This document shows, piece after piece, positions 17,553 through 33,178 of a stretch of DNA of 64,000 nucleotides. The notes below the pieces were generated by a model, which did not search any database, had not been told where the DNA came from, and worked only from the letters and a program-made list of their open reading frames with translations. Source of the stretch: a virus; IMG/VR virus record IMGVR_UViG_3300042197_002762, positions 1 to 64,000 of that record; one strand, written 5' to 3'. The translations under genes and the position numbers were made by a program. Position 1 is the stretch's first letter. Every line of letters starts with the position of its first letter.

Positions 17553-17656
17553 ATCTACTCATCAAATAGTATACCACCATATAGACAAATATCAAGAATA
17601 AAACATAGAGAAGTATACCAATCATTTGATATATTACAACTATTTTGATAATTTAT

Positions 17657-17733
17657 GTAAGTTGTTGATTATGAAGTACTTACGCCGCGCCGCCGGGCGC
17701 GCCGCCGTAACCCCTTGATTTTCAACGTGCTAC
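17657..17733. repeat. 77-bp element, copy 1
   Basis: GTAAGTTGTT-N7-AAGTACTTAC, 23-bp GC core, GTAACCCCTT-N7-AACGTGCTAC. Confidence 0.9.
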
Positions 17734-17743
17734 AATTTAATGC

Positions 17744-17780
17744 AAAAAAATGCGGGGCGCAGCACTCGCCACGCCCCGCA
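17744..17780 (-). terminator. intrinsic terminator after rIIA
   Basis: TGCGGGGCG/CGCCCCGCA stem followed by a T-run on the - strand. Confidence 0.8.
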
Positions 17781-17801
17781 CCACCACACCACCACTAACA
17801 A

Positions 17802-20045: not shown

Positions 20046-20116
20046 ATTAGTAGTAGGTTGAGTAATCAGAATAGCAGCATTTGTGTCGCATGGCAAGAGT
20101 TTTTTTGCAAAAAAAT

Positions 20117-20193
20117 GTAAGTGCCTTAAACTCAACGACTTACACGGCGCGGCGGGGCGCGGCGCTGTAAGTGCCTGGAATTGAACAGGTTAC
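20117..20193. repeat. 77-bp element, copy 2
   Basis: GTAAGTGCCT-N7-AACGACTTAC, GC core, GTAAGTGCCT-N7-AACAGGTTAC. Confidence 0.95.
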
Positions 20194-20211
20194 AACAAAC
20201 ACTATTGGAAC

Positions 20212-20251
20212 AAAAAGTTGGGGGTGAGGCCCACCACAAGCCCCACCCCCA
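20212..20251 (-). terminator. intrinsic terminator after rIIB
   Basis: TGGGGGTG...CACCCCCA stem followed by TTTTT on the - strand. Confidence 0.7.
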
Positions 20252-20268
20252 TGTCGCACCACCGACGA

Positions 20269-21117
20269 CTACCGCTTCCGCATGAAGCGACCTTTCGCAT
20301 CCCTCACATTGTAGTAAGGAGTTTCTTCCGCATCGTAGTTGAATGAGGGGGAATAATCCTCATCATCGGAAGTGAACTCCGTGTTGAGCGGTTTCCGATA
20401 AACCTGCTCAAAGTCCTTGACAACCTCGTAGCGAGCAGTCCGCAACTTCTGGCAGTCACAATCTTTCGGAACCGAAACAACATCCGAAGGATTGATCTTG
20501 ACGATCACCAAGCGCGAGTTGCCACCACCGAAGGTTTTAGCATACTCATAGCTACCAGCATGGAAACCATACGAGCAACCAACATCGGCGTCGTCGCAGA
20601 CAGCGTTGCGCGGCATTTCCAAAACCTCGCCAACACCATTGAAGAACTTGCCACTATGATGATCCATGTAATCCTCGCGGACACTCTTGTAGGCCAAGAA
20701 GTCGCCATCTTCACAGATCGGAAGATGCTTGTGTTCAAGGAACTTGTAAAGCTCCGAAACAGCACGACGAGAAGGATTCGCCATGAGTTTCTCAAGGAAC
20801 TTGGCAAGCGGAGCGAACGGCAAACCATCATCCATGAAGTCGAAGATACGATCCACGACATAGTTGTGCAAGGGTTCACCTTGGTAGTAGATCACGCCAT
20901 CGGCAATCTCGATACCGCCGACATTATCGGCATTGAACTTGCGGGTGATAGACTCTGAAACGTCGAACAGGGAGTCGAGCGTGTCAATGTCTCCAGTAGC
21001 GAGGCAAGTAAGAGCCTCGGTGAAAGACGGATGATTACAAGTCATCGTCTTGGGAGTGCCATCAATTACTGCGGTGATGGACTCGTCGGTTTTGATTAGT
21101 GCGTTTAGTGCTTTCAT
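20269..21117 (-). CDS. rIIB: rIIB-like protein
   Basis: LYKFLEH..LPI.EDGDFLAYK.V, MPRN.V.DD...CS.GFH.GS..YA, VKINP.DVVSVP.D...KLR. Confidence 0.88.
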   Translation of the reverse strand: MKALNALIKTDESITAVIDGTPKTMTCNHPSFTEALTCLATGDIDTLDSLFDVSESITRKFNADNVGGIEIADGVIYYQGEPLHNYVVDRIFDFMDDGLPFAPLAKFLEKLMANPSRRAVSELYKFLEHKHLPICEDGDFLAYKSVREDYMDHHSGKFFNGVGEVLEMPRNAVCDDADVGCSYGFHAGSYEYAKTFGGGNSRLVIVKINPSDVVSVPKDCDCQKLRTARYEVVKDFEQVYRKPLNTEFTSDDEDYSPSFNYDAEETPYYNVRDAKGRFMRKR

Positions 21118-21150
21118 CGTTTATTATATTATGCGTTTTTGGTCTGATTG

Positions 21151-21396
21151 TCAAACTGATTTCTTATCCATTTGGAAAGAAAAATGGCGAACACCAACCA
21201 GCGCGAGAATATCGTGGTTGACCTTGGAAGTCTCGCGCAATACTTTCATGTATTTGGTGAAAATTTGTTTTTTGTTAAGTCCAGCGTCCACCATCAAATC
21301 CCAGAGTTGCTTGTGCATGGCCGTGCCGTAGTGAGCAACGGCGAAAGCCAAGTCCTCATAGCGGCGAACAGAGTAGGTGTCTTTGAGAATCTTCAT
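21151..21396 (-). CDS. hypothetical protein
   Basis: 81 aa; coupled to the upstream ORF. Confidence 0.65.
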   Translation of the reverse strand: MKILKDTYSVRRYEDLAFAVAHYGTAMHKQLWDLMVDAGLNKKQIFTKYMKVLRETSKVNHDILALVGVRHFSFQMDKKSV

Positions 21397-21578
21397 TGTA
21401 GGTCTGTGATTTCGATAGCATTGACGATATACTTCTTGACATTCCCGACAATATCGGGAAACTCAATCAAAAGCGTTTGCTTGTTGTCAAGGTAAGTAAT
21501 CATAGGAACCGAATAGCCTTTTTCGCTCTGGTCGAGCTTTTCAGCAATGCGGTAAATGAGGTCGGTGCTATTTTTCAT
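21393..21578 (-). CDS. hypothetical protein (leaderless)
   Basis: TTGACA-N17-TACCTT-N6-ATG. Confidence 0.7.
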   Translation of the reverse strand: MKNSTDLIYRIAEKLDQSEKGYSVPMITYLDNKQTLLIEFPDIVGNVKKYIVNAIEITDLQ

Positions 21579-21621
21579 CCTCTAAAGGTATCGCATTTTG
21601 CGATTGGTGTCAAGTGTTTTT

Positions 21622-21698
21622 GTAAGTGCCTGGGATTCAAATACTTACGCCGCGCCGCCCCGCGCGCAATTGTAAGTCATTCATTACCAAATAGTTAT
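21622..21698. repeat. 77-bp element, copy 3 (abuts the tRNA-Lys 3' end)
   Basis: GTAAGTGCCT-N7-AAATACTTAC, core, GTAAGTCATT-N7-AAATAGTTAT. Confidence 0.9.
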
Positions 21699-21769
21699 GG
21701 AACGGGTGAGGCTCGAACTCACAACCAACGCCTTAAAAGGGCGCTGCTCTACCATTGAGCTACCATTCC
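21698..21769 (-). tRNA. tRNA-Lys(UUU)
   Basis: GCGCC-CTTTTAA-GGCGT anticodon arm, TTCGAGC T-loop. Confidence 0.92.
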
Positions 21770-21777
21770 TCAAATAG

Positions 21778-21850
21778 TGGGGCGAGTAGGATTCGAACCT
21801 ACAACCAATCGATTATGAGCCGACTGCTCTGACCATTGAGCTATCACCCC
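21778..21850 (-). tRNA. tRNA with CAU anticodon (Ile2-like or elongator Met)
   Basis: GTCGG-CTCATAA-TCGAT anticodon arm; lacks the three consecutive G-C pairs of initiator tRNA. Confidence 0.9.
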
Positions 21851-21929
21851 AGAAATTTAATCAGTCCGTAAATAGCAAACGCCCAGACCAAAATAGTTAC
21901 AGGTAAAGCTACAAATAGAACAATAGATT

Positions 21930-22178
21930 TCATAATTCAAAATATGATTGTTGATATTCAGTTTGTTCTACATCGTAGTCTGGAACCCAGATGTTCTCAT
22001 CGTTATGAGAACGACAAGCCAGTAGCAAATCTGTATGTTCCGTGTAGTCGTGATCGTAATACGGCTGCTCGGAATCTTCGTAATCAACGATTTCCCAAGT
22101 CTTGCCATCGTATTTTACATAGTCACCAATGACGAGCATTTCGCCATCGTAGTCAGCGGGGCAGATGTTTTTACTCAT
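21930..22178 (-). CDS. hypothetical acidic protein
   Basis: 82 aa; LVIGDYVKYDGKTWEIV (SH3-like). Confidence 0.7.
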   Translation of the reverse strand: MSKNICPADYDGEMLVIGDYVKYDGKTWEIVDYEDSEQPYYDHDYTEHTDLLLACRSHNDENIWVPDYDVEQTEYQQSYFEL

Positions 22179-22501
22179 AGTTTGAATATTGATTCGGGAT
22201 TAGGATAAACTTTTTTGCGTCTAATGTAAAGCCCCCAAAATTTTAGAGCGCGATCTTCGATTTGACAAAAGAGCTTGCCATGATCTAACGTCCCTCCGTA
22301 GAAGTGGCAAACCTCATGGACAACGTAGTAGATGACGAATTTTTCTCCGTGTTTGAACGCCCACTCTGGAATCGAAAACCACCCCTTCGTGGTATAGGCG
22401 CGACCCCGCTTGTTGGGTGTAATTTTGGCCTTGGGTCTAATGGGGAGTCCGAGGAATCTTGCGGTGAGATTTGCGATGGCTTGGATTTCATTTAGTTTCA
22501 T
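22175..22501 (-). CDS. SprT/zincin-like HExxH metalloprotein
   Basis: YYVVHEVCH...HGKLF. Confidence 0.75.
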   Translation of the reverse strand: MKLNEIQAIANLTARFLGLPIRPKAKITPNKRGRAYTTKGWFSIPEWAFKHGEKFVIYYVVHEVCHFYGGTLDHGKLFCQIEDRALKFWGLYIRRKKVYPNPESIFKL

Positions 22502-22560
22502 GGTGTAGCCTTACAGTATGGGATTTTGCGTGTGCGGTCAAGATATTTTTTCATTAAAAT

Positions 22561-22637
22561 GTAAGTGCCTGGAAACCAACGAGTTATGCCGCGCGGCGGG
22601 GCGCGGCGGCGTAAGTGCCTGGGAATGAACGACTTAC
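22561..22637. repeat. 77-bp element, copy 4
   Basis: GTAAGTGCCT-N7-AACGAGTTAT, core, GTAAGTGCCT-N7-AACGACTTAC. Confidence 0.95.
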
Positions 22638-22659
22638 ATAAAAAAGAATTTTTGCAAAG

Positions 22660-22688
22660 AAAAAACTTGACAGGTTGCCCTGTCAAGT
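22660..22688 (-). terminator. intrinsic terminator after the DUF932 gene
   Basis: CTTGACAGG-GCAA-CCTGTCAAG followed by T6 on the - strand. Confidence 0.85.
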
Positions 22689-22706
22689 CTTTCTGAGTTT
22701 GTTCGC

Positions 22707-23486
22707 TTAGGCGAGGACTGCTTCCGCATCCTCAACCCTCGCCAGCGCAACGCCAGCGAGAGGGTCGAGAAGTCCGTGCAGAGAGTCGCTCCGCTTGGGC
22801 AGTGCCAGCACGTTGCCGCGCATGACGTTGGTGAACGAGTTGTGCAAGCCCCACAGGTTGCGTTGCTCTGACCACTCGGCGTGTTCAGGGGTGTGCCACT
22901 GGTCGAGAACGTCCGCCAGTGCCGTCTTGCTGACCGCGCCAACGCGATACGCTTTGGCGATGAGGTCATGCGCCTCAAGGTCGTTGATCGAGCGAGCCTG
23001 ATAAGCCTCGATGCGCTTGGCGTTGTTGCCCCAAGTGTTCAGCAGTTTGCCGAACGCACCGGACAGGAGCATGGGCAGGTCGCGCATGATGAACTTGGTG
23101 TGGCGACGAGCGATCTTGATCTCGTTGTGGAAGGCGAGATTGTCGCAGACGAACGGAGCCGAACCAGCGTTGATGCCAGCAGGGAACGATTTGTCGTGCG
23201 AGTTACGCAGACCGATCACAGTGCCGATGTTCTCCTCTTGCGAGAAGTTGGGGATTCCCGCGACTTGGAACAAGCCGAAGTAGCGGAGACCATTGCGAGC
23301 AAGGGCGTGAGCCTCTTGCGTGATGCTGAGACCAGCGTTGATCACAACCTCGCGCAGACGCTCGACGAGAGCGAAGTGCGGGATGGGCATCCACGTTTCC
23401 GTGGGCGCAGGAGTTGCGATTTGCTGAACTTCAGTGGATTCCACGGCGTGACCGCCGCAGTGCAGTGTTAGGTTTAGGTTTCTCAT
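22707..23486 (-). CDS. DUF932-family protein
   Basis: ETWMPIPH..LVE, GLRYFG, IGLRNSHDKS, FVCDNLAF, LWGLHNSFT. Confidence 0.8.
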   Translation of the reverse strand: MRNLNLTLHCGGHAVESTEVQQIATPAPTETWMPIPHFALVERLREVVINAGLSITQEAHALARNGLRYFGLFQVAGIPNFSQEENIGTVIGLRNSHDKSFPAGINAGSAPFVCDNLAFHNEIKIARRHTKFIMRDLPMLLSGAFGKLLNTWGNNAKRIEAYQARSINDLEAHDLIAKAYRVGAVSKTALADVLDQWHTPEHAEWSEQRNLWGLHNSFTNVMRGNVLALPKRSDSLHGLLDPLAGVALARVEDAEAVLA

Positions 23487-23573
23487 ACTTCATAAGAATA
23501 CGTTGTTTTGCGTGACAGTGCAAGCGGTTTTTTTGAATTTGATTGAAAATATTTTTATGCCTTTCGGCAAAAC

Positions 23574-23589
23574 TTGGCACGGTTCTTGA
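23574..23589 (+). promoter_or_regulatory. sigma54-like -24/-12 box upstream of element copy 5
   Basis: TTGGCACG-GTTC-TTGA; the GG is 26 bp before the element start. Confidence 0.55.
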
Positions 23590-23601
23590 ATGTGAAAAGT
23601 C

Positions 23602-23678
23602 GTAAGGCGTTGATTTTCAACGACTTACGCGGCGCGGCGGGGCGCGCCCTCGTAACCCCATGATTACGAGGGCTTTAC
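23602..23678. repeat. 77-bp element, copy 5
   Basis: GTAAGGCGTT-N7-AACGACTTAC, core, GTAACCCCAT-N7-AGGGCTTTAC. Confidence 0.95.
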
Positions 23679-23680
23679 GC

Positions 23681-23851
23681 CTATTTGAGGAATTTTGCGA
23701 CTTGGATTCGGTTGGCCTTCTTCAGTAGGTCAGTGCGACCCAAGAAACCAGCTTTCTTCCGGCGCGACAAGACAGAGACAACACCAACTTCCTTGCGGAA
23801 GCGAACAGTCTCGCCCTTGTAGTTGTAGATAGCACCTTCGATGAGTTTCAT
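23681..23851 (-). CDS. small basic hypothetical protein (56 aa)
   Basis: MKLIEGAIYNYKGETVRF...; start reassigned; GGAGG-like AGGAGG upstream. Confidence 0.65.
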   Translation of the reverse strand: MKLIEGAIYNYKGETVRFRKEVGVVSVLSRRKKAGFLGRTDLLKKANRIQVAKFLK

Positions 23852-23867
23852 TATATTTTCCTCCTTT

Positions 23868-24092
23868 CTATTCTTCGTCATCCCCAAACATGGAGTCCCA
23901 CTCTTGGGGAGTGATACCCGTTTTGATGAACTCACGTTCACCAGCGGACAGCATGGGGAAAGCGTCTTGGATGAGCATCCCCGTTTGCCACAGGGTTGCA
24001 CGTTTCCCATACTCCTTGGGGGGGAGAGGGATTTCCATCTGGTTGACTTTGCCAGTGAAGGGAGAACGACGAGTGATAGTGATTTTGTTCAT
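23868..24092 (-). CDS. hypothetical phage protein (leaderless)
   Basis: LIQDAFPMLSAGEREFIKTGITPQEWD; TTGCAA-N17-TACATT-N6-ATG. Confidence 0.8.
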   Translation of the reverse strand: MNKITITRRSPFTGKVNQMEIPLPPKEYGKRATLWQTGMLIQDAFPMLSAGEREFIKTGITPQEWDSMFGDDEE

Positions 24093-24130
24093 ATTGCTAA
24101 TGTATGGGATTTTGAGAAGGATTGCAAGGA

Positions 24131-24856
24131 TTATTTTTCAAAAACATACGACCAGTAGCGCGAATCCTGCTTGTCTTGAATCGCGTCCCAATAGAGACAC
24201 CGAGCGATGTAGCAAGGAACATCGTAGGCGCGGCACATACTAATCCAATGCGCTTCGATGTTATCGTAATGTTTTTCGTCTTTAGTTTGGTCGAGTCCGT
24301 AGGCTTGGAACATATGAGTGTCCATGCAGACAACCTCGCACTTGTCGGGATGCATCATTTCCAGAGAGAAGGAAACTTTTGCTTTGCCAAGACCAAGCAC
24401 TTCACCAACAAGCTCGTCACGATGGCCGCGCCAATCGGCGGGAGCGTGAGAGTATTTCGGAATATCTTTCCAGAACTTTTGCTGGAACTGCCACACAAAC
24501 TTTGTGCGATTGTTGTGCAAGCCAACGCCGCTATGCTTGAGCTTGTTGAGAAGAACTTGCTGGTCATGCCACCAATCGAGAGTCTTGATGGCGTTGTAAC
24601 CATTGACGTTGGACTTCCAACTGGTATGGACTGACATAAAAGCAAACAGCCAACGCAACATGGAGTCTTGCGTTCCCTTGGGCGCGATGGAATTCCAGTA
24701 GTTGGTGTATGACACAATGCGCGAGTGGTCGAGAGTGTCAAAGAATTTCTCAACGCGAACGTATTGCGGATTGCGCGTAGGCTTGAGTTCAAGCTCTGGC
24801 TGCACAAGAGCATCAGAGGAGCAACGCATAGGGAGAGGCAGTTGTGTGGTGATCAT
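24131..24856 (-). CDS. HhH-GPD superfamily N-glycosylase/DNA lyase (Ogg-like)
   Basis: RDELVGEVLGLGKAKVSF helix-hairpin-helix followed by CMDTHM (catalytic Asp position). Confidence 0.75.
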   Translation of the reverse strand: MITTQLPLPMRCSSDALVQPELELKPTRNPQYVRVEKFFDTLDHSRIVSYTNYWNSIAPKGTQDSMLRWLFAFMSVHTSWKSNVNGYNAIKTLDWWHDQQVLLNKLKHSGVGLHNNRTKFVWQFQQKFWKDIPKYSHAPADWRGHRDELVGEVLGLGKAKVSFSLEMMHPDKCEVVCMDTHMFQAYGLDQTKDEKHYDNIEAHWISMCRAYDVPCYIARCLYWDAIQDKQDSRYWSYVFEK

Positions 24857-24908
24857 GTTCCAAGGATAGCCCTATTTGAAAATTTTGTCAACTGGTTTTT
24901 TATAATTT

Positions 24909-24985
24909 GTAAGTGCCTGGAAATGAACGACTTACACGGCGCGGCGGGGCGCGGCGCTGTAAGTGCTTGATAATGAGCACCTTGC
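24909..24985. repeat. 77-bp element, copy 6 (right arm overlaps the tRNA-Cys 3' end)
   Basis: GTAAGTGCCT-N7-AACGACTTAC, core, GTAAGTGCTT-N7-AGCACCTTGC. Confidence 0.93.
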
Positions 24986-25047
24986 TGGATTCGAACCAGC
25001 GTATAAGAGTTTTGCAGACTCTGGCCTTACCACTTGGCGAAAGGTGC
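24976..25047 (-). tRNA. tRNA-Cys(GCA)
   Basis: GCACCTT acceptor stem, AGAGT-CTGCAAA-ACTCT anticodon arm, TTCGAAT T-loop. Confidence 0.92.
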
Positions 25048-25818
25048 GAAAGTGTTCGGCTGCTCATACTTCCCTCCGTCAACAACCCTTTACGGCCTCG
25101 GGTGGGGCGAATGTGTTGCCACACTCGCAAGCTAACGCGCACCGAACGCGGGTCATGGCGACCATCCTCCTTTGCGGTAATCACTCCGCTTCTTTGGCCC
25201 AAGGATAGGCATCGTGCGTTGATTAGACGCTAGTATGTGTAGATGGCCCTAGACTATAACGGCTTCGGCTTACGTTGCACAACTTTCTTTCTAGACTATG
25301 TTGAGCAAACCATCAAATTATAAAAATGGTGATAGGGAGGCCAGAACTCCCTACCTATGACTCCGTGCCTTCTGGCGGCACCGACATCAAATTGCCTTTC
25401 GGCAACTAGCCCACAAGTTGAACGGAGATGTATCCGCCAGAGCTTGGGAGAATTTCTGAGCTGGAAGTTAATTCTTCTATTTTTGTCTTACGCGTATCCC
25501 ACCCTTCGGGGATGGGTCAGCTCAAATTGATTTCAGCCTCGGAGGGTTTTGTGTAGGACGACAGACCCTTACTTCTGTCCTTCTTTTATTCCGATACTTT
25601 ATTCGGGCTTGTTTTGCAAATTGTAAAAGAACTGCCCAGAGTTGTGATCGATCACAGCTTTATGACTCTTACGAGAGCAATGGGGTCTGGGCGACTCCCT
25701 ATGTTTTTATCTGCCTCGGCGGATGTTTGATTTTCGCTTTCGCGCCACCGCAAAGATCCGGTTAACTTTGCATCTTTTATTTCCGATATTGATTGTCGGG
25801 CAGATTTATTTTTGTGGC
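25048..25818 (-). ncRNA. candidate large structured ncRNA or array of ncRNAs (family unassigned)
   Basis: ~770 nt with no credible ORF; many stems, GNRA loops on the - strand (GAAA, GTAA), complementary loop pairs and a duplicated pseudoknot motif. Confidence 0.7.
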
Positions 25819-26082
25819 TTACGCCACAGATTTTCCAAAGAGCGATACGACTTCCCTATCAACGATCTCGTCGAAGCGGAACCTACGAACACCTTTGCCG
25901 AAGCAGTAGGCGGTGATTCCATTAGCGAACCCATCGAAGGGACGAGAAACGTAGTAGGTATGAACCTCATTGTTTCCGTGATCGGTGTAAGGCCGATATT
26001 TCAGACGATACACAGGATTGGTGAACTGGCCCAGCTTGGAGTCAGCGATTGCGAGTTTGACTTTATTTAGTAGTGCTTTCAT
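25819..26082 (-). CDS. stand-alone WYL-domain protein (87 aa, leaderless)
   Basis: YRLKY...V.RP...ITAYCFGKGVRRFRFDEI resembles the WYL AYC..R..R.FR.DRI motif; TTGACT-N17-TATTCT-N6-ATG. Confidence 0.65.
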   Translation of the reverse strand: MKALLNKVKLAIADSKLGQFTNPVYRLKYRPYTDHGNNEVHTYYVSRPFDGFANGITAYCFGKGVRRFRFDEIVDREVVSLFGKSVA

Positions 26083-26196
26083 TTTTATAGAATAAGTCTT
26101 TTTGCGTTCAAAGTCAACGGGTTTTTTCCAAAAAAAATTTTCACAAATATCCAAAATAGTATTGACAAAATAGCTAAATAGTGATAGGTTAAATAG

Positions 26197-26448
26197 ATGG
26201 ATAGAAATAGTTTACAATTAATAATTAATAATAATAAAGCATTACAAGACTTGGATAGATACTTCAAGGATAGTGGAGAATTGCATCTCATATGTGACAA
26301 AATAGGTAGGGAGCGTGACCCTGAGAACAGGGAACAGCTTATCAGTAAGATGAAGTGGAAGAATAAACAATTTGCAGAATCAATTGTCAAGTTGGCATCG
26401 ATGATAACTACACTAAAGCATAATCCACAAAGTCCTATCGCTCAATGA
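26197..26448 (+). CDS. hypothetical helical protein, the only + strand gene in the island
   Basis: 83 aa, AT-rich; TTGACA-N17-TAGGTT upstream; stop codon inside element copy 7. Confidence 0.65.
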   Translation: MDRNSLQLIINNNKALQDLDRYFKDSGELHLICDKIGRERDPENREQLISKMKWKNKQFAESIVKLASMITTLKHNPQSPIAQ

Positions 26449-26503
26449 CTTACGACGGGCGGCGGGGCGCGCCGCCGTAAGTGGTTGATGTCCAACGCTT
26501 TAC
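26427..26503. repeat. 77-bp element, copy 7 (left arm degenerate)
   Basis: ACAAAGTCCT-N7-AATGACTTAC, core, GTAAGTGGTT-N7-AACGCTTTAC. Confidence 0.88.
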
Positions 26504-26577
26504 GCCACTTCCGATTTGGGCAAAAAGTCAAACGCCCGTTTGAAGGGGCGTTGACTATGACACAACTATGACAAAGG

Positions 26578-27036
26578 TTAGTCCTCTGTCTCGCTCACCC
26601 AATCCGGCGCGCCGCCGTCGAGTTGCTGGTAGATGTGCGTTGGAGTTTTGGCGAACAGCATGAAACTTTCGCGTGGGAAAGATTCAAACTCTGCGCGTGC
26701 AGCTTGCGCGGCGTCACGGCGAAACTTTTCGCCATTCGGTTTCTTGTGAAAGCGCGGACGCGCCTTGTATTGTTCGCTCACCGGAGAGTCTTGCCAATTT
26801 GTCATAGTTTCGTATGTCATAGCGCGAAGCATATCCGCTTCCGTGGAGAGGAAGTAGGAGAAGTTATCGGAGAGTTCGTGTAAGTAGCTGCCGAGTTCAC
26901 CGATGCCAGTTGCGCCCCAGTTGAAGAAGCGGTTGAACGTGCGTTCAACTTGTTCGCGTGTTCCGTTGAGGCCGACAGCGATGCCGTTGCCGTATGCGCT
27001 GATGATGATGTTTGCTTGTTCCATTGTGTTTGTCAT
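26578..27036 (-). CDS. hypothetical protein
   Basis: 152 aa; followed by a terminator-like hairpin at ~26525-26555. Confidence 0.75.
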   Translation of the reverse strand: MTNTMEQANIIISAYGNGIAVGLNGTREQVERTFNRFFNWGATGIGELGSYLHELSDNFSYFLSTEADMLRAMTYETMTNWQDSPVSEQYKARPRFHKKPNGEKFRRDAAQAARAEFESFPRESFMLFAKTPTHIYQQLDGGAPDWVSETED

Positions 27037-27040
27037 AAAA

Positions 27041-27175
27041 TTAATTTCCGCGAGCGTCGATGTCCTGCCAGTATTTCAGTTCTTGCTCGTCGAGCCAAGC
27101 CTCAAATTCAGAGGCAAACTCGTCGCTTTGGATTTGCGTGGTGAAGTCGTCGTTGATGATGGAGTTCGCTTGCAT
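27041..27175 (-). CDS. small acidic protein (44 aa, leaderless)
   Basis: MQANSIINDDFTTQIQSDEFASEFEAWLDEQELKYWQDIDARGN; not in the ORF track; paralogue of 31568-31780. Confidence 0.75.
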   Translation of the reverse strand: MQANSIINDDFTTQIQSDEFASEFEAWLDEQELKYWQDIDARGN

Positions 27176-27278
27176 GAGAAAAGAATAGCACAGGGGCGCG
27201 AGAGTGCAACGGATTTTTTTGCATTTTTAGAAAGTATTTTTGTTGACGATTTCTCAAACGGGCGTTTGAATCCCAAAG

Positions 27279-27294
27279 TTGGCACGCTTTCTGC
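27279..27294 (+). promoter_or_regulatory. sigma54-like -24/-12 box upstream of element copy 8
   Basis: TTGGCACG-CTTT-CTGC, GG-N10-GC spacing; the GG is 26 bp before the element. Confidence 0.65.
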
Positions 27295-27306
27295 TCCTTG
27301 TTTTGC

Positions 27307-27383
27307 GTAAGTCGTTCATTTTCAAGCACTTACGCTGGCGCGGGGGGCGCGCCGCCGTAAGTCGTTGATTTACAACGCTTTAC
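27307..27383. repeat. 77-bp element, copy 8
   Basis: GTAAGTCGTT-N7-AAGCACTTAC, core, GTAAGTCGTT-N7-AACGCTTTAC. Confidence 0.95.
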
Positions 27384-27384
27384 G

Positions 27385-27540
27385 TTACCGCAATCTATCG
27401 CGCAAGTCGAGGCAACGCTCCCACGCTATGACAAACATTTTCGAGAGTGTCATAAAGCCGTGACGTTCCAATTTTTGCGCGAGGCTGAAGCAACCTTCCG
27501 ACAAGCGGAACAGATTTTTTCGTGCGATTAGGTTTGTCAT
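27385..27540 (-). CDS. hypothetical protein (51 aa)
   Basis: MTNLIARKNLFRLSEGCFSLAQKLERHGF...; start reassigned. Confidence 0.6.
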   Translation of the reverse strand: MTNLIARKNLFRLSEGCFSLAQKLERHGFMTLSKMFVIAWERCLDLRDRLR

Positions 27541-27617
27541 AGTTTTCCGTTCTGATGAATTGCAAAGGCACACGCAGCCACCACTACAAGCAGGCAGATG
27601 ATTTCCATAGGGGTTCA

Positions 27618-28301
27618 TTATACACCAACTTGCACCACGAATCCAGAAGTATCGCGGAGAGCTTTGCCCTTTGCTTTGAGTCCGACGATCACACCTTGCG
27701 GATCGAGAAAGCGTAAGTCGCTTTCGTCGCCGTTTATGACAGTCTTGCCGAGGTAGGTTTCGGGCAACTCATTAAAGACAACCGCCACGTTGCCACCAGC
27801 AGCAACAACGGCGTGGACGCGATGCTGATTGTCCTCCTTACGCGAGAAAGTAAGATGATAATTTTTCGGTAGTTCGCCATTCAAAAATTGCATCATGCGC
27901 TGAAGGTTCGGCGTGTAGTCGTAAAACTGAATTGACGGAAAACGCGCCATGTCGATGAGCATATGCCAAGGAAGGTCAGAAAGCACGTTCGGACGCACAG
28001 CAACGGGCATTTTATTTTTAACGCTCCATTTTTCTGCGTTGTGCAATTCCTTATTCATCTGTGCGAGAAACGTGTTGCGCTCGTCGATGAAAAAACGAGA
28101 CTTTGCAAGGCGAGCGTCTTGCACGTTTGAGAAAATGCCCATGCCCGAAGTGTCGAGACAAGCGGCCTCGCATCCTGCCGAGCGATGCGGACAGAATTGT
28201 TTTCCGCTTTTGCCAGCGGGAGAGAGTGACAGGCCGTAAGTGCGCCAGCCGAGTTTCTCGCCTTTTTTGATTTTGGTGTTGTTGGTGCTGAGTAGTTTCA
28301 T
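27618..28301 (-). CDS. Gp88-like conserved phage protein
   Basis: MKLLSTNNTKI, LSLSPA..SG..CP...GC.AACL, RPNVLSD, FYDYT, YHLTFS, NVAVVF, GDESDLRFLD, IVGLKAKG. Confidence 0.75.
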   Translation of the reverse strand: MKLLSTNNTKIKKGEKLGWRTYGLSLSPAGKSGKQFCPHRSAGCEAACLDTSGMGIFSNVQDARLAKSRFFIDERNTFLAQMNKELHNAEKWSVKNKMPVAVRPNVLSDLPWHMLIDMARFPSIQFYDYTPNLQRMMQFLNGELPKNYHLTFSRKEDNQHRVHAVVAAGGNVAVVFNELPETYLGKTVINGDESDLRFLDPQGVIVGLKAKGKALRDTSGFVVQVGV

Positions 28302-28326
28302 GGTGATGATTTTTGCAGATTTTAAG

Positions 28327-28566
28327 TTAGAGGGCAAGAGCTTTTTTCACCCTTGCGATGTCGCGCTTACTGTGCGTGTAGAGTTTCGCGTCGATGCTTT
28401 CCAGATTGGAGAGCAAACGATAGGCGGCGATTTTTTCGCGTGCGTTACGGCGCGCAAACTTTGAGACGATGCTGTTGCGGTCGCGCAAGCTGTTCGTGAT
28501 GTCCTTTTGAAGCGCAACACGCGCATGAATGAGGGCTTCGTAGAGTTCGCGTTTGGTGATGTTCAT
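28327..28566 (-). CDS. hypothetical basic protein
   Basis: 79 aa; TTGCAA-N17-GAAAAT-N6-ATG. Confidence 0.7.
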   Translation of the reverse strand: MNITKRELYEALIHARVALQKDITNSLRDRNSIVSKFARRNAREKIAAYRLLSNLESIDAKLYTHSKRDIARVKKALAL

Positions 28567-28604
28567 ATTTTTATTTTCTCCGATTTTGAGTTAGGTTGCA
28601 AGGA

Positions 28605-28760
28605 TTATTTTTCGAGAAGTGCCGCAAGCTGTTTGCGAAGCTTGCCCAAGTGATTGAGGAGGACAGTCGTTTGATCGTCGAGCATAGGATCGAGAAGATC
28701 CTCCGCCACTTGTTCGATTTTTGCGGTGAGGGTTTGGATTTGGATTTCTTTCTCTGTCAT
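28605..28760 (-). CDS. small helical protein (51 aa, leaderless)
   Basis: MTEKEIQIQTLTAKIEQVAEDLLDPMLDDQTTVLLNHLGKLRKQLAALLEK; not in the ORF track. Confidence 0.75.
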   Translation of the reverse strand: MTEKEIQIQTLTAKIEQVAEDLLDPMLDDQTTVLLNHLGKLRKQLAALLEK

Positions 28761-28873
28761 GCTTACAATGTATCACAGCCGCGTAAAAATGCAACGATTT
28801 TTTTTCAATTCCGTAAAAGTATTTTTGTTGACACTTTTTCAAACAGGCGTTTGAACCACTATGACATTCATTG

Positions 28874-28889
28874 TTGGCACGGTTCCTGC
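28874..28889 (+). promoter_or_regulatory. sigma54-like -24/-12 box upstream of element copy 9
   Basis: TTGGCACG-GTTC-CTGC; the GG is 26 bp before the element. Confidence 0.65.
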
Positions 28890-28901
28890 GCACTATGTTG
28901 C

Positions 28902-28978
28902 GTAAGTCGCTGATATCCAAGCACTTACGCCGCGCGGCGGGGCGCGCCGCCGTAAGTCGTTGATTATTAGTGCTTTAC
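28902..28978. repeat. 77-bp element, copy 9
   Basis: GTAAGTCGCT-N7-AAGCACTTAC, core, GTAAGTCGTT-N7-AGTGCTTTAC. Confidence 0.95.
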
Positions 28979-29110
28979 GATGTAGTCGCTGATCTGGCCG
29001 TTAGCCGCCATGCGCTCAAGCCATGTGGAAGTATTGTAGTGCCACAGGCTCATGGCGAGCAGTGAAACAGGCGTTTGAATTCCGAGCAGTTGTTTTATCC
29101 AGTTTGTCAT
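28967..29110 (-). CDS. hypothetical protein (47 aa)
   Basis: MTNWIKQLLGIQTPVSLLAMSLWHYNTSTWLERMAANGQISDYIVKH; stop codon inside element copy 9. Confidence 0.55.
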   Translation of the reverse strand: MTNWIKQLLGIQTPVSLLAMSLWHYNTSTWLERMAANGQISDYIVKH

Positions 29111-29114
29111 AGTG

Positions 29115-29300
29115 TTATGACACCGATTCTTCGTCGGTGCCGAGAATTTTTTCCATGCGCTCTTTCAGTAGCGTATAGACAAGGTGCGCGTCATGCACAG
29201 CGTCAACGCAGTCTTTCCGCATACCTTCCATGAGGAAGTCTTTTGCAAAGAAGCGAACGCCATTTGATTCAAGGGCTTTTTGTATGTTGGGCGTGATCAT
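29115..29300 (-). CDS. hypothetical protein
   Basis: 61 aa; KDCVDAVHDAHLVYTLLKER. Confidence 0.7.
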   Translation of the reverse strand: MITPNIQKALESNGVRFFAKDFLMEGMRKDCVDAVHDAHLVYTLLKERMEKILGTDEESVS

Positions 29301-29497
29301 GATTCAGAATCATCGAGGAACATTCCGTCGAAAGCAAGAGGTTTTTCCAGATGGTCAAACATGGTGTTGACATCTTTTTGCAGTTCCTTCTTTTCGTGCA
29401 AGTTGAGGCAAGCTGTCAAAAGCATTACCAGAATGAGGATGAAGGTTGAGAGAGACATTACATAGGCAATGCTGTCGAATGTGATGTATTTTTTCAT
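29297..29497 (-). CDS. small membrane protein
   Basis: MKKYITF... with one TM segment; start reassigned. Confidence 0.6.
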   Translation of the reverse strand: MKKYITFDSIAYVMSLSTFILILVMLLTACLNLHEKKELQKDVNTMFDHLEKPLAFDGMFLDDSES

Positions 29498-29501
29498 GTA
29501 A

Positions 29502-29591
29502 TTATTTTTTTCGGGAATCAGCCCAGAGGATGAGGAACGCGCAAGCGGAAGGGAAGATGCACAGGTAAAAGAGTGGAACCCAGATTGACAT
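29502..29591 (-). CDS. small membrane peptide (29 aa)
   Basis: MSIWVPLFYLCIFPSACAFLILWADSRKK; fills the gap between neighbours exactly. Confidence 0.5.
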   Translation of the reverse strand: MSIWVPLFYLCIFPSACAFLILWADSRKK

Positions 29592-29594
29592 AGT

Positions 29595-29810
29595 TTATTT
29601 ATATGATCCAACAGGGATGTTGGGCGTTGCAGAGTAGACCGCTTCCAGAAAACGACTTTCATCAAAGCGCGGATTCTGTTCGGTGAAGTATTTCGCAAAG
29701 TCCAAGGCGAGGACTTCGACAGCTTCGTATTCTCCGATGGGAGCGTGTTGTTTTTCAGCGAGACGCTTGCCCAAGATTTTTGCGATGGCCTCGAATTGTT
29801 TTTTTGTCAT
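29595..29810 (-). CDS. hypothetical phage protein (NPRFD family, leaderless)
   Basis: MTKKQFEAIA...FTEQNPRFDESRFLEA; TTGACC-N17-CACAAT-N6-ATG. Confidence 0.8.
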   Translation of the reverse strand: MTKKQFEAIAKILGKRLAEKQHAPIGEYEAVEVLALDFAKYFTEQNPRFDESRFLEAVYSATPNIPVGSYK

Positions 29811-29857
29811 GGTGTTATTGTGGTTTGTTTTGTGGTTAGGGTCAAGAGATTTTTTCA

Positions 29858-30037
29858 CTACCAGCGGTTGCGGTAGCGGTCGAGCCTTTCGGCGCGGTTC
29901 ATGCGCTCGATCTCACGCTCGTAAGCGTCAGGGTTGATCTTGTAGGCAGGATCTTCACGATCAATGCCGAGTGGGAGGTCGAGGGTTGCTTCGCGTTCTT
30001 CGTCGCGCCAGCTTCTGGTGTATCCGTTTCTGTTCAT
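29858..30037 (-). CDS. small charged protein (59 aa, leaderless)
   Basis: MNRNGYTRSWRDEEREATLDLPLGIDREDPAYKINPDAYEREIERMNRAERLDRYRNRW; not in the ORF track. Confidence 0.75.
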   Translation of the reverse strand: MNRNGYTRSWRDEEREATLDLPLGIDREDPAYKINPDAYEREIERMNRAERLDRYRNRW

Positions 30038-30163
30038 GTATACAGAATAGCACAGGGCCGCGAAAATGCAACGATTTTTTTTGCGATTGTTGAAAGTATT
30101 TTTGTTGACGTTTCGGCAAACGAGTGTTTGAAAAAAAGACTATGACAAAGAGTGTCATAATGC

Positions 30164-30240
30164 ACAAGTCACTGATATTCAAGCACTTACGCTCGCGCGC
30201 GGGGCGCGCCGTCGTAAGTCGTTGATATTCAACGCTTTAC
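30164..30240. repeat. 77-bp element, copy 10
   Basis: ACAAGTCACT-N7-AAGCACTTAC, core, GTAAGTCGTT-N7-AACGCTTTAC. Confidence 0.93.
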
Positions 30241-30392
30241 TCGTCAGACCAACCGCGAAAAAACTTCGCCTTGCGCGCGAATTTTTTCTTGACACGCATG
30301 GCGAACGAAGGCTTGCAAGTTGTCTTGCGAACACTTCGCTCTATCGCGCGCGCGAGTGGGCGCGTGTCGATTGTCATAATGATTTTGCTCAT
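30237..30392 (-). CDS. small basic protein (paralogue of 32360-32536)
   Basis: IDTRPLARAIERSV; stop codon in the right arm of element copy 10. Confidence 0.6.
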   Translation of the reverse strand: MSKIIMTIDTRPLARAIERSVRKTTCKPSFAMRVKKKFARKAKFFRGWSDE

Positions 30393-30393
30393 G

Positions 30394-30624
30394 TTAGTTG
30401 ACTCCGTAAGAAAACTTTTTGTCGCGCAGTTGCTGAACCTCACGCGCCAGAACGAGGTTCGTTCCACACAAGAGATTCAGTTTGTGCTCGTGCATGGTGA
30501 TGGTGTGCAAGGCTTGTGCCAGCAGTTCTTTCAACTGTGTCATATCAGCCTCCTGCGCCTGGATAGTTTTTTCATGCTTGATGAGAGTCTCCAGCGATTT
30601 TATGATGCCGTCTTGGTTTGTCAT
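30394..30624 (-). CDS. small coiled-coil protein
   Basis: MTNQDGIIKSLETLIKHEK...; start reassigned. Confidence 0.7.
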   Translation of the reverse strand: MTNQDGIIKSLETLIKHEKTIQAQEADMTQLKELLAQALHTITMHEHKLNLLCGTNLVLAREVQQLRDKKFSYGVN

Positions 30625-30628
30625 AGTG

Positions 30629-30790
30629 TTAGTGTTTAGGCTTGGGTTCGGGGCGAGCACACGGATCGTTGCGGTGACGCTCCTCGGCGTAGCCGAAAAG
30701 GATGTCGAACGCTTGTTCGGGTGTGAGGTTATCTTCGGGTTCGTCGAAGTTCCAGACTTCGGGCCAGCCAGTTGTGGTGTTTTCTGTCAT
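30629..30790 (-). CDS. small acidic protein (leaderless)
   Basis: TTGCCT-N17-TATACT-N6-ATG. Confidence 0.7.
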   Translation of the reverse strand: MTENTTTGWPEVWNFDEPEDNLTPEQAFDILFGYAEERHRNDPCARPEPKPKH

Positions 30791-30810
30791 ATTGAAAGTA
30801 TAGGAGATGC

Positions 30811-31014
30811 TTACTCCAAAGGCAAGCAAATTGTGGACTGGATCGCCAACCCGCACAGGTGCGAGTAGTCGTAACCTTTTTGGTCGAGAGTTTTTTTCAT
30901 CTGTTCGATGCGGCGCGTGGCCTTATTGATCGCCGTGCGAAGCGTGGCCGCTTCGATTTCGATGATGACCGGAAGCTCTCCGGTCTTGGTGAAGGTGATG
31001 ACGTATGGTTTCAT
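30811..31014 (-). CDS. hypothetical protein
   Basis: TTGACT-N16-TAAAAT-N7-ATG. Confidence 0.7.
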   Translation of the reverse strand: MKPYVITFTKTGELPVIIEIEAATLRTAINKATRRIEQMKKTLDQKGYDYSHLCGLAIQSTICLPLE

Positions 31015-31045
31015 GGTTAGAATTTTAGCAGGTTAGTGGTGAGAG

Positions 31046-31222
31046 TCAAGCGATTTTCTTGACCGCTACCTTCCAGTAGGGGAAGTAAAGCCCCAAGTAG
31101 CGAGCGGTGATTTGCACACCATCTTTGCACCAGATGGTGCGTTTGTTGTTTTGCGAGACGAAGGGGATGCCCTTCATGGCGTTGAGGACGATTTCCTTTT
31201 TGTGGGTTCCTTTTGTTATCAT
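31046..31222 (-). CDS. hypothetical protein (leaderless)
   Basis: TTGCGT-N16-TATAGT-N6-ATG. Confidence 0.7.
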   Translation of the reverse strand: MITKGTHKKEIVLNAMKGIPFVSQNNKRTIWCKDGVQITARYLGLYFPYWKVAVKKIA

Positions 31223-31335
31223 GCTTACACTATACCACAGATCGCGCAAAACGCAAGGGATTTTTTTGCGATTAGCGAAAGTATTTTTGTTGACGTTTTG
31301 TCAAACGGACGTTTGAATCACTATGACATTCATTG

Positions 31336-31351
31336 TTGGCACGGTTCATGA
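31336..31351 (+). promoter_or_regulatory. sigma54-like box upstream of element copy 11
   Basis: TTGGCACG-GTTC-ATGA; the GG is 26 bp before the element. Confidence 0.5.
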
Positions 31352-31363
31352 GCAGCATATTGC

Positions 31364-31440
31364 GTAAGTCGCTGATTATCAAGCACTTACGACGGGCGGC
31401 GGGGCGCGCCGTCGTAAGTCGTTGAATACCAAGGGTTTAT
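31364..31440. repeat. 77-bp element, copy 11
   Basis: GTAAGTCGCT-N7-AAGCACTTAC, core, GTAAGTCGTT-N7-AAGGGTTTAT. Confidence 0.95.
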
Positions 31441-31567
31441 GCAACATGGGATTTGGGCAAATTGAAACGCCCGTTTAGAACGGGCGTTTCGCTTCCTCAT
31501 CGTTTATTCCCGCGTCATGGAGACACGCATCGAAACGTTCGGAAAGTTATGACACAGCTATGACAAA

Positions 31568-31780
31568 CTAGTTGTCCCAGCCCTCCTGCTCGCCCCAATC
31601 CGCGAGGTCGTCGAGGCCCGACCCATCACCAGGCCATTGGCCCTCGCACCCATCGTAGGGTTGCGGTTCGGGTTCCTGCTCGACGGCAGGCTCTGCCGCG
31701 AACGTGCCGTGAGCCTCCTCATGCTCGCTGGCGTATTCGTCGGATTGCGGTTGCGTGTTGAAGTCGTCGGTGATGTTCAT
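31568..31780 (-). CDS. small very acidic protein (leaderless)
   Basis: MNITDDFNTQPQSDEYASEH...DDLADWGEQEGWDN; TTGCCA-N17-TATCCT-N6-ATG. Confidence 0.8.
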   Translation of the reverse strand: MNITDDFNTQPQSDEYASEHEEAHGTFAAEPAVEQEPEPQPYDGCEGQWPGDGSGLDDLADWGEQEGWDN

Positions 31781-31823
31781 AGTGTTAGGATATGATGAGT
31801 TGAGGTTAATGGCAAGAGATTTT

Positions 31824-32168
31824 TTATGCAGCCAAGGCAGGGCGCACACGGAACACAAGCTGTAGCCTTTCGGGGTGAACCTTGCCAGCGACGAAAGCCG
31901 CAAGACTATCGCTGTCAAAGTTGAAGCGCGAGAGAGGATGAGAGTTAGCCCAGCGCAATCCATCGGGCAAGCCGAGGTCGATGAGTTGCTGCACCTCTGC
32001 GTTAGAGGGCACAGAGTAGGGCGACCAGCCGAGAGTGGCGATGGTCTTGCCAGACTCGACGCTGACGAGCTCATGCCAGAGTTTAGTGCAATCGCCATCG
32101 AAGTCCTCCGAGACGACGAGCGTGCAAAGGGTTCCGTTGACGTTGAATTGTGTTTCTTTATCTTTCAT
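31824..32168 (-). CDS. hypothetical protein (leaderless)
   Basis: TTGCAT-N16-TATTCT-N6-ATG; 114 aa. Confidence 0.8.
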   Translation of the reverse strand: MKDKETQFNVNGTLCTLVVSEDFDGDCTKLWHELVSVESGKTIATLGWSPYSVPSNAEVQQLIDLGLPDGLRWANSHPLSRFNFDSDSLAAFVAGKVHPERLQLVFRVRPALAA

Positions 32169-32258
32169 GCTTATAGAATAGCACAGCGCGCGGAAAATGC
32201 AACGATTTTTTTTGCGATTGTGCAAAGTATTTTTGTTGATGAAAAAAAGTTTTGGGAG

Positions 32259-32274
32259 TTGGCACGCTTCATGA
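32259..32274 (+). promoter_or_regulatory. sigma54-like box upstream of element copy 12
   Basis: TTGGCACG-CTTC-ATGA; the GG is 26 bp before the element. Confidence 0.5.
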
Positions 32275-32286
32275 ATGTGTGTTTGC

Positions 32287-32363
32287 GTAAGTCGTTCATT
32301 ATCAAGCACTTACGTTTCGCGGCGGGGCGCGCCGGCGTAAGTCGTTGAACGACAACAACTTAC
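32287..32363. repeat. 77-bp element, copy 12
   Basis: GTAAGTCGTT-N7-AAGCACTTAC, core, GTAAGTCGTT-N7-AACAACTTAC. Confidence 0.95.
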
Positions 32364-32536
32364 AGAGAACAGATCGTGCGCCAGACAATCACCACAGCAA
32401 GGCCCACAAGTGCGCCTTCTATGACATTGATGATTGCCTTTGTCATAATGTGCTTTGTCATAGTGCGGTGAACGCTCTTGTCGATTGCTTGTGCAAGCGG
32501 CTTGGTGTCGATTGCGAGTGGTATTTTCTTTGTCAT
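32360..32536 (-). CDS. small protein with C-terminal TM segment (paralogue of 30237-30392)
   Basis: IDTKPLAQAIDKSV; stop codon in the right arm of element copy 12. Confidence 0.55.
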   Translation of the reverse strand: MTKKIPLAIDTKPLAQAIDKSVHRTMTKHIMTKAIINVIEGALVGLAVVIVWRTICSL

Positions 32537-32540
32537 AATG

Positions 32541-32768
32541 TTAGCAAGGCGCGCCGCCATAGCAGGGCGCATCTTCGTTTGCGAGGATCTCACAAACAAT
32601 GTCATAGAGTCCTTGGTTTGCTTCAAAGCTCTCTTGCGAGACTTCGTAGCCGTCTCTCCACATGGCAAAACCAGAGAGTTGCAATTGATCGGCATGATCG
32701 AACTCATACTCTGTGCAGAGGTAGTATTCGCAGCCTTGGTAAGTGAAGTAGTCTTCGTATGTGTTCAT
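32541..32768 (-). CDS. small acidic protein
   Basis: MNTYEDYFTYQGCEYYL...; start reassigned. Confidence 0.7.
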   Translation of the reverse strand: MNTYEDYFTYQGCEYYLCTEYEFDHADQLQLSGFAMWRDGYEVSQESFEANQGLYDIVCEILANEDAPCYGGAPC

Positions 32769-32769
32769 G

Positions 32770-32952
32770 TTATTCTTTTCCCAAGTATTCAGCGACTTGA
32801 GAAGGTGTTGCAACCTTCAGAGTGCGCGTGTAGAACAGGCCCATCTTACCATGATGATGAGCGTGAGTCTTGTCGCCTTCGTTGCGAATGACGCGGTAGA
32901 CTGTTGCGCCGCTCACCCAGAGCTGGCCTTTTTGTGGTGTTTTATTTTTCAT
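32770..32952 (-). CDS. hypothetical protein (leaderless)
   Basis: TTGACT-N16-TACATT-N6-ATG. Confidence 0.75.
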   Translation of the reverse strand: MKNKTPQKGQLWVSGATVYRVIRNEGDKTHAHHHGKMGLFYTRTLKVATPSQVAEYLGKE

Positions 32953-32995
32953 GCTTTTAATGTATCAGAGTTGAGGAAAAAGTCAAGGGATTTTT

Positions 32996-33178
32996 TTACT
33001 TTCTCACAAGTTTTTTTTCCCATACCAGAGCATCAACCCTGTGGAACTTTACCTCGTAGGAGCCTTTAGCAGTCCAACCCTTGAACACACGGAGGTTTAA
33101 CCCTCCGAACGTGCAGACCGCTTTGTTGCGAGCGGCATAAGCGTTGATGTCGGTGCTGGTGTAGTATTTCTTTTTCAT
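32996..33178 (-). CDS. hypothetical protein (leaderless), first gene of the leftward early block
   Basis: TTGCTT-N16-TACATT-N6-ATG. Confidence 0.75.
   Translation of the reverse strand: MKKKYYTSTDINAYAARNKAVCTFGGLNLRVFKGWTAKGSYEVKFHRVDALVWEKKLVRK

Follow-up and report, generated by a model that had tools for sequence, protein, structure and literature searches.

Sigma-54-type -24/-12 boxes at a fixed distance from a repeated 77-bp element in the early island of an uncultured phage

Boxes and elements of the early island

The stretch of DNA considered here, hereafter the window, is the first 64 kb (64,000 nucleotides) of the virus record IMGVR_UViG_3300042197_002762, a phage sequence of 178,478 bp with direct terminal repeats (IMG/VR). 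The phage is of the virulent type and carries, at 17.6-33 kb, an early island with a G+C content of ~48%, as against ~32% for most of the genome. Twelve copies of a 77-bp element, all in a single orientation, split this island into cassettes, and no copy was found elsewhere in the 178,478-bp genome. Five of the elements (copies 5, 8, 9, 11 and 12) are preceded, at one fixed distance, by a box that resembles the -24/-12 site of bacterial sigma-54 (RpoN) promoters and points against the early genes. These boxes may be antisense promoters read by the sigma-54 polymerase of the host, a tentative interpretation that is weighed below together with its alternatives.

The sigma-54 consensus, YTGGCACG-N4-TTGCW, places GG at -24 and GC at -12, 10 bp apart, and sigma-54 is the one bacterial sigma factor that is silent until an ATPase activates it. 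The window has five exact copies of the sequence TTGGCACG, each of them on the + strand and followed by an element (Table 1), while the sole other exact copy in the whole 178,478-bp genome lies on the - strand at 99704. The distance from the first G of the box GG to element base 1 is 26 bp in 5/5 window copies. The positions of the boxes, their strand and this 26-bp offset had been described in an initial annotation made from the letters alone, and an exact-match search of the window found all of them to be right, as it did the division at -12 into two boxes with the GG-N10-GC spacing and three with GA. The description of the boxes as antisense to the early genes was likewise borne out, in that they point against conserved - strand genes. 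Initiation ~12 nt past the -12 base would fall on element base 1 or its neighbour, in keeping with the start that had been predicted at the element; the predicted + strand starts (~23601, 27306, 28901, 31363 and 32286) each correspond to the first base of the element or to the base before it.

With a tolerance of one mismatch, enrichment of the 8-mer in the window is not clear (48 matches vs 33.7 +/- 6.2 expected, with 2/100 shuffles reaching 48), and the signal therefore resides in the five exact copies, which share one strand and are tied to elements. The box belongs to a longer version of the repeat, designated family D3, so that the five window copies are not independent events and are not, alone, proof of selection.

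Table 1. Coordinates (window numbering) of boxes, elements and associated features. Box rows begin at the first letter of TTGGCACG; element rows begin at base 1, the G of GTAAG.
Feature	Position	Strand	Remarks
Box 1, sigma-54-type, TGA at -12, before copy 5	23574..23590	+	orthologous boxes kept in six genomes, spacer varies
Element copy 5, 77 bp	23602..23678	+	stop codon of - strand open reading frame (ORF) 23681-24010 lies 2 nt beyond
Box 2, sigma-54-type, TGC, canonical GG-N10-GC, before copy 8	27279..27295	+	predicted start 27306/27307
Element copy 8, 77 bp	27307..27383	+	abuts stop of - strand ORF 27385-27618, followed by GP88-family gene 27618-28337
Box 3, sigma-54-type, TGC at -12 (GG-N10-GC), before copy 9	28874..28890	+	
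Element copy 9, 77 bp	28902..28978	+	
Box 4, sigma-54-type, TGA at -12, before copy 11	31336..31352	+	
Element copy 11, 77 bp	31364..31440	+	
Box 5, sigma-54-type, TGA at -12, before copy 12	32259..32275	+	
Element copy 12, 77 bp	32287..32363	+	overlaps stop of - strand ORF 32360-32707
Divergent sigma-70-type early promoter of next cassette (left of box 2)	27173..27209	-	-35 27209-27204, -10 27187-27182, ATG 27175-27173; leaderless layout
Equivalent early promoters left of the other four boxes	ATGs 23486, 28760, 31222, 32168		
16-bp palindrome (TCAAACG..CGTTTGA), between early promoter and box	27254..27269, 28839-28854, 31301-31316		

Conservation of the box and its replacement in related phages

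A search with rIIA, combined with an element-core pattern, yielded 18 related viral contigs, in which an element profile identified about a dozen copies per island. The contrast in G+C content of the early island (window 17600-33000) is retained in related phages, and because the island and its elements are present in related contigs too, an assembly chimera was ruled out as the origin of the island. Of 109 distinct elements in the source phage and its relatives, 50-51 (in 15 contigs) are preceded by TTGGCA at a distance of exactly 28 nt from element base 1; a shifted offset was not seen in any of them. Conservation of the 26-bp offset in homologous phages, which the initial annotation had proposed as a check, is thus without variation across all of the boxed elements in these 15 contigs.

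Ten positions, including TTGGCA and a TG located 9 nt after the GG, are invariant in 50/50 copies. At box position 7, C (39) alternates with T (11), and at position 8, G (44) with A (6), in the same 50 copies; the base at -12 is C in 22 and A in 28 of them. The four bases between the two blocks of the box are variable, three being moderately conserved (T, T, C). Mean pairwise identity amounts to 0.93 in the -24 block, 0.50 over the four inter-block bases, 0.66 in the -12 block, 0.50 in the 11-nt spacer that separates box and element, and 0.38 upstream of the box; the spacer has neither insertion nor deletion in 50 distinct copies. Within orthologous sets (e.g., that of copy 5, from six genomes) the box is constant and the spacer changes. 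Judged from these sequence comparisons, the box and its distance to the element are under purifying selection, because the two blocks are invariant among relatives while the spacer and flanks drift. The strict 26-bp coupling is a constraint for any model of the 77-bp element. The element also abuts the stop codon of the gene that is faced in 48/64 boxed vs 11/60 unboxed copies, counted over copies that include duplicates.

A very improbable alternative is that the box is functionless and is carried in a repeat subfamily spread by recombination between cassettes, similar to the promoter-early stem-loop (PeSL) cassettes of T4-type phages. Such passive carriage would agree with the location of the box within extended repeat D3 and with the shuffling of cassettes between relatives, the junctions of which lie between box and promoter, but it does not explain ten invariant positions in 50 distinct copies from 15 contigs next to an 11-nt spacer that is 50% identical and free of indels. 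The exchange itself is apparent when the window is compared with one relative (G001), since the two share an orthologous element and the genes to its right and differ in the left-hand cassette and in promoter type; elsewhere, orthologous upstream flanks are joined to different box classes.

The G001 locus (L021, reverse strand, about 9925-9808), which aligns with window 27240-27383, provides a natural replacement of the box. Instead of a box, this counterpart of copy 8 has a sigma-70 promoter, TTGACA-N17-TAGTAT, on the same strand and ending 12 nt before the element. The two sites are orthologous, as indicated by an unusual run of six G that both share in the element center and by right-hand - strand proteins that are 87% and 55% identical to those encoded at 27618-28337 and 27385-27618, respectively. 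The G001 promoter is near-consensus, has an AT-rich upstream tract, and points into the element, antisense to the conserved genes; an open frame farther along the + strand, which overlaps a conserved - strand gene, is in all likelihood spurious. The window retains TTGACG (27243-27248) where the -35 aligns, with no -10 following it. The design in which a sigma-70 promoter stands before the element recurs at a second G001 element and in other relatives (L028, L026 and L027/L038), i.e., in at least four other copies. The two promoter types share one position and one polarity, with predicted starts within about 5 nt of each other, and argue that a promoter firing into the element is the selected feature. 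This natural exchange at an orthologous site also offers experiments a ready-made comparison.

Boxes of the consensus TGC form are also present in relatives with no element 28 nt downstream (L019 of G005, L020 of G004, L027, L030, L038 and L039). One of these off-element boxes, which G004 and G005 share, lies beyond the island in an AT-rich flank. Downstream of it come a strong Shine-Dalgarno sequence, of a kind that is rare in the genome described here, and an ATG that opens a small ORF of 33 amino acids with a hydrophobic product in G005 and an unrelated one of 55 amino acids in G004. Another, found in four contigs, lies 36 nt past an inverted element and is again directed against an opposite-strand gene, into its 3' end; that inverted element is itself preceded by a sigma-70 promoter.

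Candidate readers of the box

The two-block profile of the box, the spacing of its blocks and the variants that it permits (C/T, G/A and TGC) are those of sigma-54 sites, and the canonical GG-N10-GC arrangement is found in 22/50 copies. The form with A at -12 (TGA) is not foreign to sigma-54. Of the intergenic Escherichia coli sigma-54 sites obtained by chromatin immunoprecipitation sequencing (ChIP-seq) and listed in Table 1 of Bonocora et al. (2015; PMC4591121), 7/50 are without C at -12 and three, including hydN, have A, as counted by eye and not with a scoring matrix; hydN bears a "C" mark in the EcoCyc column of that table, and pspA and pspG have T at -12. The TGA form was judged compatible with sigma-54 because A occurs at -12 in these three bound sites; by this comparison it can be bound by sigma-54, yet it is far commoner here than in E. 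coli.

Other promoter-like or structural readings were tried and rejected. A + strand sigma-70 promoter that uses TTGGCA, or an upstream TTGACR, as its -35 element was dismissed, as most copies have no -10 element at 16-18 nt. On the sense strand, an extracytoplasmic function (ECF)-type promoter would find a GGAAC-like -35 with no consistent -10. As a hairpin or terminator, the box gave no consistent reading on either strand.

It is rather unlikely, on balance, that the box is read by something other than sigma-54, whether a phage early protein, another host factor or the sense-strand RNA, with the likeness to a sigma-54 site arising by coincidence or mimicry. The host may lack rpoN, A is the majority form at -12, and the moderate conservation of T, T and C between the blocks falls in a stretch that the sigma-54 consensus leaves mostly unspecified; the TGA class also has a short TTC-NN-GAA inverted repeat around -12, and the island encodes many small proteins without assigned function, all of which would be in line with a different reader. 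Against this stand the coincidence of both blocks, their spacing and their permitted variants with a sigma-54 site, the textbook boxes at other places in relatives, and the failure of sigma-70, ECF-type and hairpin readings on either strand. The swap for a sigma-70 promoter, furthermore, points to polymerase as the reader.

We infer that the box is bound by sigma-54 holoenzyme, that it fires, and that firing affects the sense transcript. In this proposal, which is quite possible though short of probable, the box acts as an antisense promoter for the sigma-54 polymerase of the host; transcription from it starts at the element, opposes the facing cassette and is gated by a host activator. The composite intergenic cassette would have three modules, namely the 77-bp element, the box, and a divergent sigma-70 early promoter whose start is leaderless, and the box would serve as a selected -24/-12 docking site for host RNA polymerase carrying sigma-54. 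Transcription would start at the element or one base before it, cross the element, and continue, in antisense, into the adjoining early gene or genes, the stop codon of which borders the element; each antisense promoter would be specific to its own cassette. Gating would fall to an enhancer-binding ATPase of the host, since the phage encodes none, and the silencing of some early cassettes could in this way be tied to host state.

Several observations weigh against this proposal. One of the best-conserved positions of the sigma-54 site is missed by most copies, with A at -12 in 28/50 (56%) vs about 6% in the E. coli table. The phage encodes neither a sigma-54 DNA-binding domain (Sigma54_DBD) nor an enhancer-binding ATPase, no convincing conserved upstream enhancer was found at the usual distance from the boxes, and no U-tract terminator follows the element on the + strand. 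The 50 boxed copies are related by descent and duplication and represent far fewer independent events. A leaderless, Shine-Dalgarno-poor genome, as described below, also fits phyla that lack sigma-54, as some leaderless-rich phyla do. Finally, the presence of rpoN rests on the host, and host assignment by tblastn, protein atlas and matches in metagenome-assembled genomes (MAGs) named no host.

The individual searches illustrate the last point. Best tblastn matches of rIIA were to Streptomyces phages (about 30% identity), those of the terminase to large Bacillus and Clostridium phages (22-25%), those of the GP88-family protein to Pelagibacter and other alphaproteobacterial phages (42-47%), and those of PhoH to mixed marine phages; the protein atlas returned viral clusters only. 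Matches to the element in bacterial genomes were confined to 1-2 kb contigs in three unrelated MAGs (Alphaproteobacteria, Verrucomicrobia and Thiobacillus), and all three MAGs have rpoN, although the binning of such short contigs is no evidence of a host. The sole match to Sigma54_activat (PF00158), a weak one at 10436-11374, was rejected as an enhancer-binding protein; it belongs to a RuvB-like AAA+ protein with RuvB_N and RuvB_C (winged helix) domains.

The missing activator and enhancer speak for a second use of the same polymerase, in which sigma-54 holoenzyme would bind the box, would rarely or never fire, and would mark the cassette boundary as a closed complex. Its role could be that of an insulator or roadblock that keeps transcription of the upstream early gene from reading through into the next cassette, or of a polymerase sink, possibly in conjunction with a host DNA-bending protein on the element arms. 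The holoenzyme is known to occupy DNA while transcriptionally inactive, and in E. coli many of its sites lie within genes or antisense to them, with no transcript known to arise there (PMC4591121). The box lies immediately beyond the 3' end of the upstream gene, toward which it is directed, and the arms of the element match the consensus of integration host factor (IHF) in many copies (first arm, 24/51; third arm, 33/51 boxed copies), on the strand opposite the box. We nevertheless regard such a rarely or never firing complex as unlikely. A near-consensus sigma-70 promoter, which needs no activator, replaces the box at orthologous and analogous sites and suggests that transcription matters, not occupancy alone; a weak -12, with A in 56% of copies, would also be an odd choice for the most stable silent complex.

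If the antisense-promoter proposal is true, part of the early program would have been made dependent on a host signal, such as nitrogen, envelope or RNA-damage stress; alternatively, parked polymerases could act as boundaries between cassettes. More broadly, and with somewhat greater reserve, a family of large uncultured phages might employ host sigma-54 polymerase in the early region not for gene expression but to switch individual cassettes by antisense transcription, or to keep complexes poised at them. Such sites would lie at a constant distance from a repeated element, could be exchanged for sigma-70 promoters, and would be read out through a host activator that signals the state of the cell.

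The element, its surroundings and comparison with known systems

The initial annotation had proposed that the transcript from the box would be a small structured RNA, and this part of the proposal found no support, with poor pairing, almost no covariation and no terminator after the element. RNAalifold gave a consensus fold of -5.6 kcal/mol with one covarying pair. The candidate helices are 63-77% Watson-Crick paired with about 19% mismatches each, among them a systematic two-base mismatch in the arms, and the asymmetry between G-U and A-C pairs points to the - strand for the first arm hairpin but to the + strand for the second. The mismatched helices, the single covarying pair and the opposite strand bias of the arm hairpins led us to reject a structured RNA as a reading of the element. 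Single-copy elements fold modestly better than shuffled sequences, and an Rfam search returned tRNAs only. What is conserved in the element is the primary sequence of its four arms.

The suggestion that a divergent sigma-70 promoter lies beside each box was confirmed, the early promoter of the next cassette being located 50-80 bp to the left and running in the opposite direction. In these early promoters the ATG follows the -10 element by 6-8 nt. Shine-Dalgarno-like motifs precede 12/147 long ORFs, which is near the random rate (5.6%), and a TANNNT motif ends 4-9 nt before the ATG in 55/147 of them. The pattern suggests that leaderless or very short leaders are used genome-wide. From the layout of the early promoters and the near-random rate of Shine-Dalgarno motifs it would follow that the host reads canonical sigma-70 promoters and translates leaderless or Shine-Dalgarno-less mRNAs.

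Between early promoter and box, a 16-bp palindrome is present 20-45 bp upstream of the GG, with copy 5 being without it. It is found upstream of 17/48 boxed vs 4/56 unboxed elements, some of the matches being far upstream. The palindrome may be an operator of the early promoter, or it may be part of the control region of the box; the usual sigma-54 enhancers lie farther upstream than 20-45 bp. TATGACA heptamers occur directly upstream of boxes 3 and 4 (window 28855-28873 and 31317-31335), and copy 10, which has no box, has a TATGACA-N5-TGTCATA palindrome at the corresponding place (about 30139-30157).

Genes of the island are carried on the - strand and include rIIA (17802-20135), rIIB (20269-21117) and those for a DUF932 protein and a GP88-family protein, together with many small proteins without assigned function; three tRNA genes are also located in the island. 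No close relative was found among deposited phages by megablast, an exact-protein look-up gave no match, and PHROG searches revealed no T4-like structural proteins.

Among known systems, the bacterial sigma-54 sites represented by 135 E. coli ChIP-seq sites (Bonocora et al., 2015; PMC4591121) share with the phage boxes the two-block motif, the spacing (in 22/50) and the tolerated variants. Many of the E. coli sites, furthermore, lie outside a promoter context or are antisense, and a few, such as hydN, pspA and pspG, are without C at -12 (PMC4591121). The phage boxes differ from them in being locked at one offset to a repeated 77-bp element, in all being directed against early genes, and in having a majority of A at -12; binding is predicted here, and the boxes reside in a virulent-type phage that encodes neither sigma-54 nor its activator. 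In full-text literature searches, no paper was found that describes sigma-54-type sites locked to a repeat or located in the early region of a phage. Phage early transcription is usually described as driven by sigma-70 and subsequently by phage-encoded factors.

The PeSL cassettes of T4-type phages, as the abstracts describe them, are likewise composite regulatory units that recur between the small early genes of a plastic region (PMC2839356; PMC4122927). They, too, combine a strong sigma-70 early promoter with a neighboring palindromic element, and gene content differs between relatives at their junctions; modular exchange of this kind at cassettes is present here between the window and G001. 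In the same descriptions, a PeSL comprises a sigma-70 promoter and a terminator stem-loop, whereas the present element has a fixed length of 77 bp and is palindromic, with 63-77% pairing and no U-tract. Unlike the PeSL so described, the phage arrangement has an additional, oppositely directed -24/-12 site (or sigma-70 promoter) that faces the element.

In the abstract of one report, IHF is linked mainly to RpoN-dependent promoters (PMC7962754). The boxed elements resemble such IHF-assisted promoters in placing a -24/-12 site at a fixed distance from matches to the IHF consensus. The classical layout of IHF-assisted sigma-54 promoters has IHF upstream, between enhancer and promoter, while the IHF-like arms here lie downstream, in the element that would be transcribed.

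Two further sites in the window resemble parts of the box. Before copy 7, TTGGCAT (window 26392-26408) lies 35 nt from the element, which is not the offset of the boxes, and lacks a -12 block; in relatives no more than a degenerate form is seen at this site, which may be a decayed box. A strict -24/-12 match, TGGCAC-N5-CTTGCA, is located at window 30506-30521 on the - strand, in the sense orientation and within a small - strand ORF (ATG 30623).

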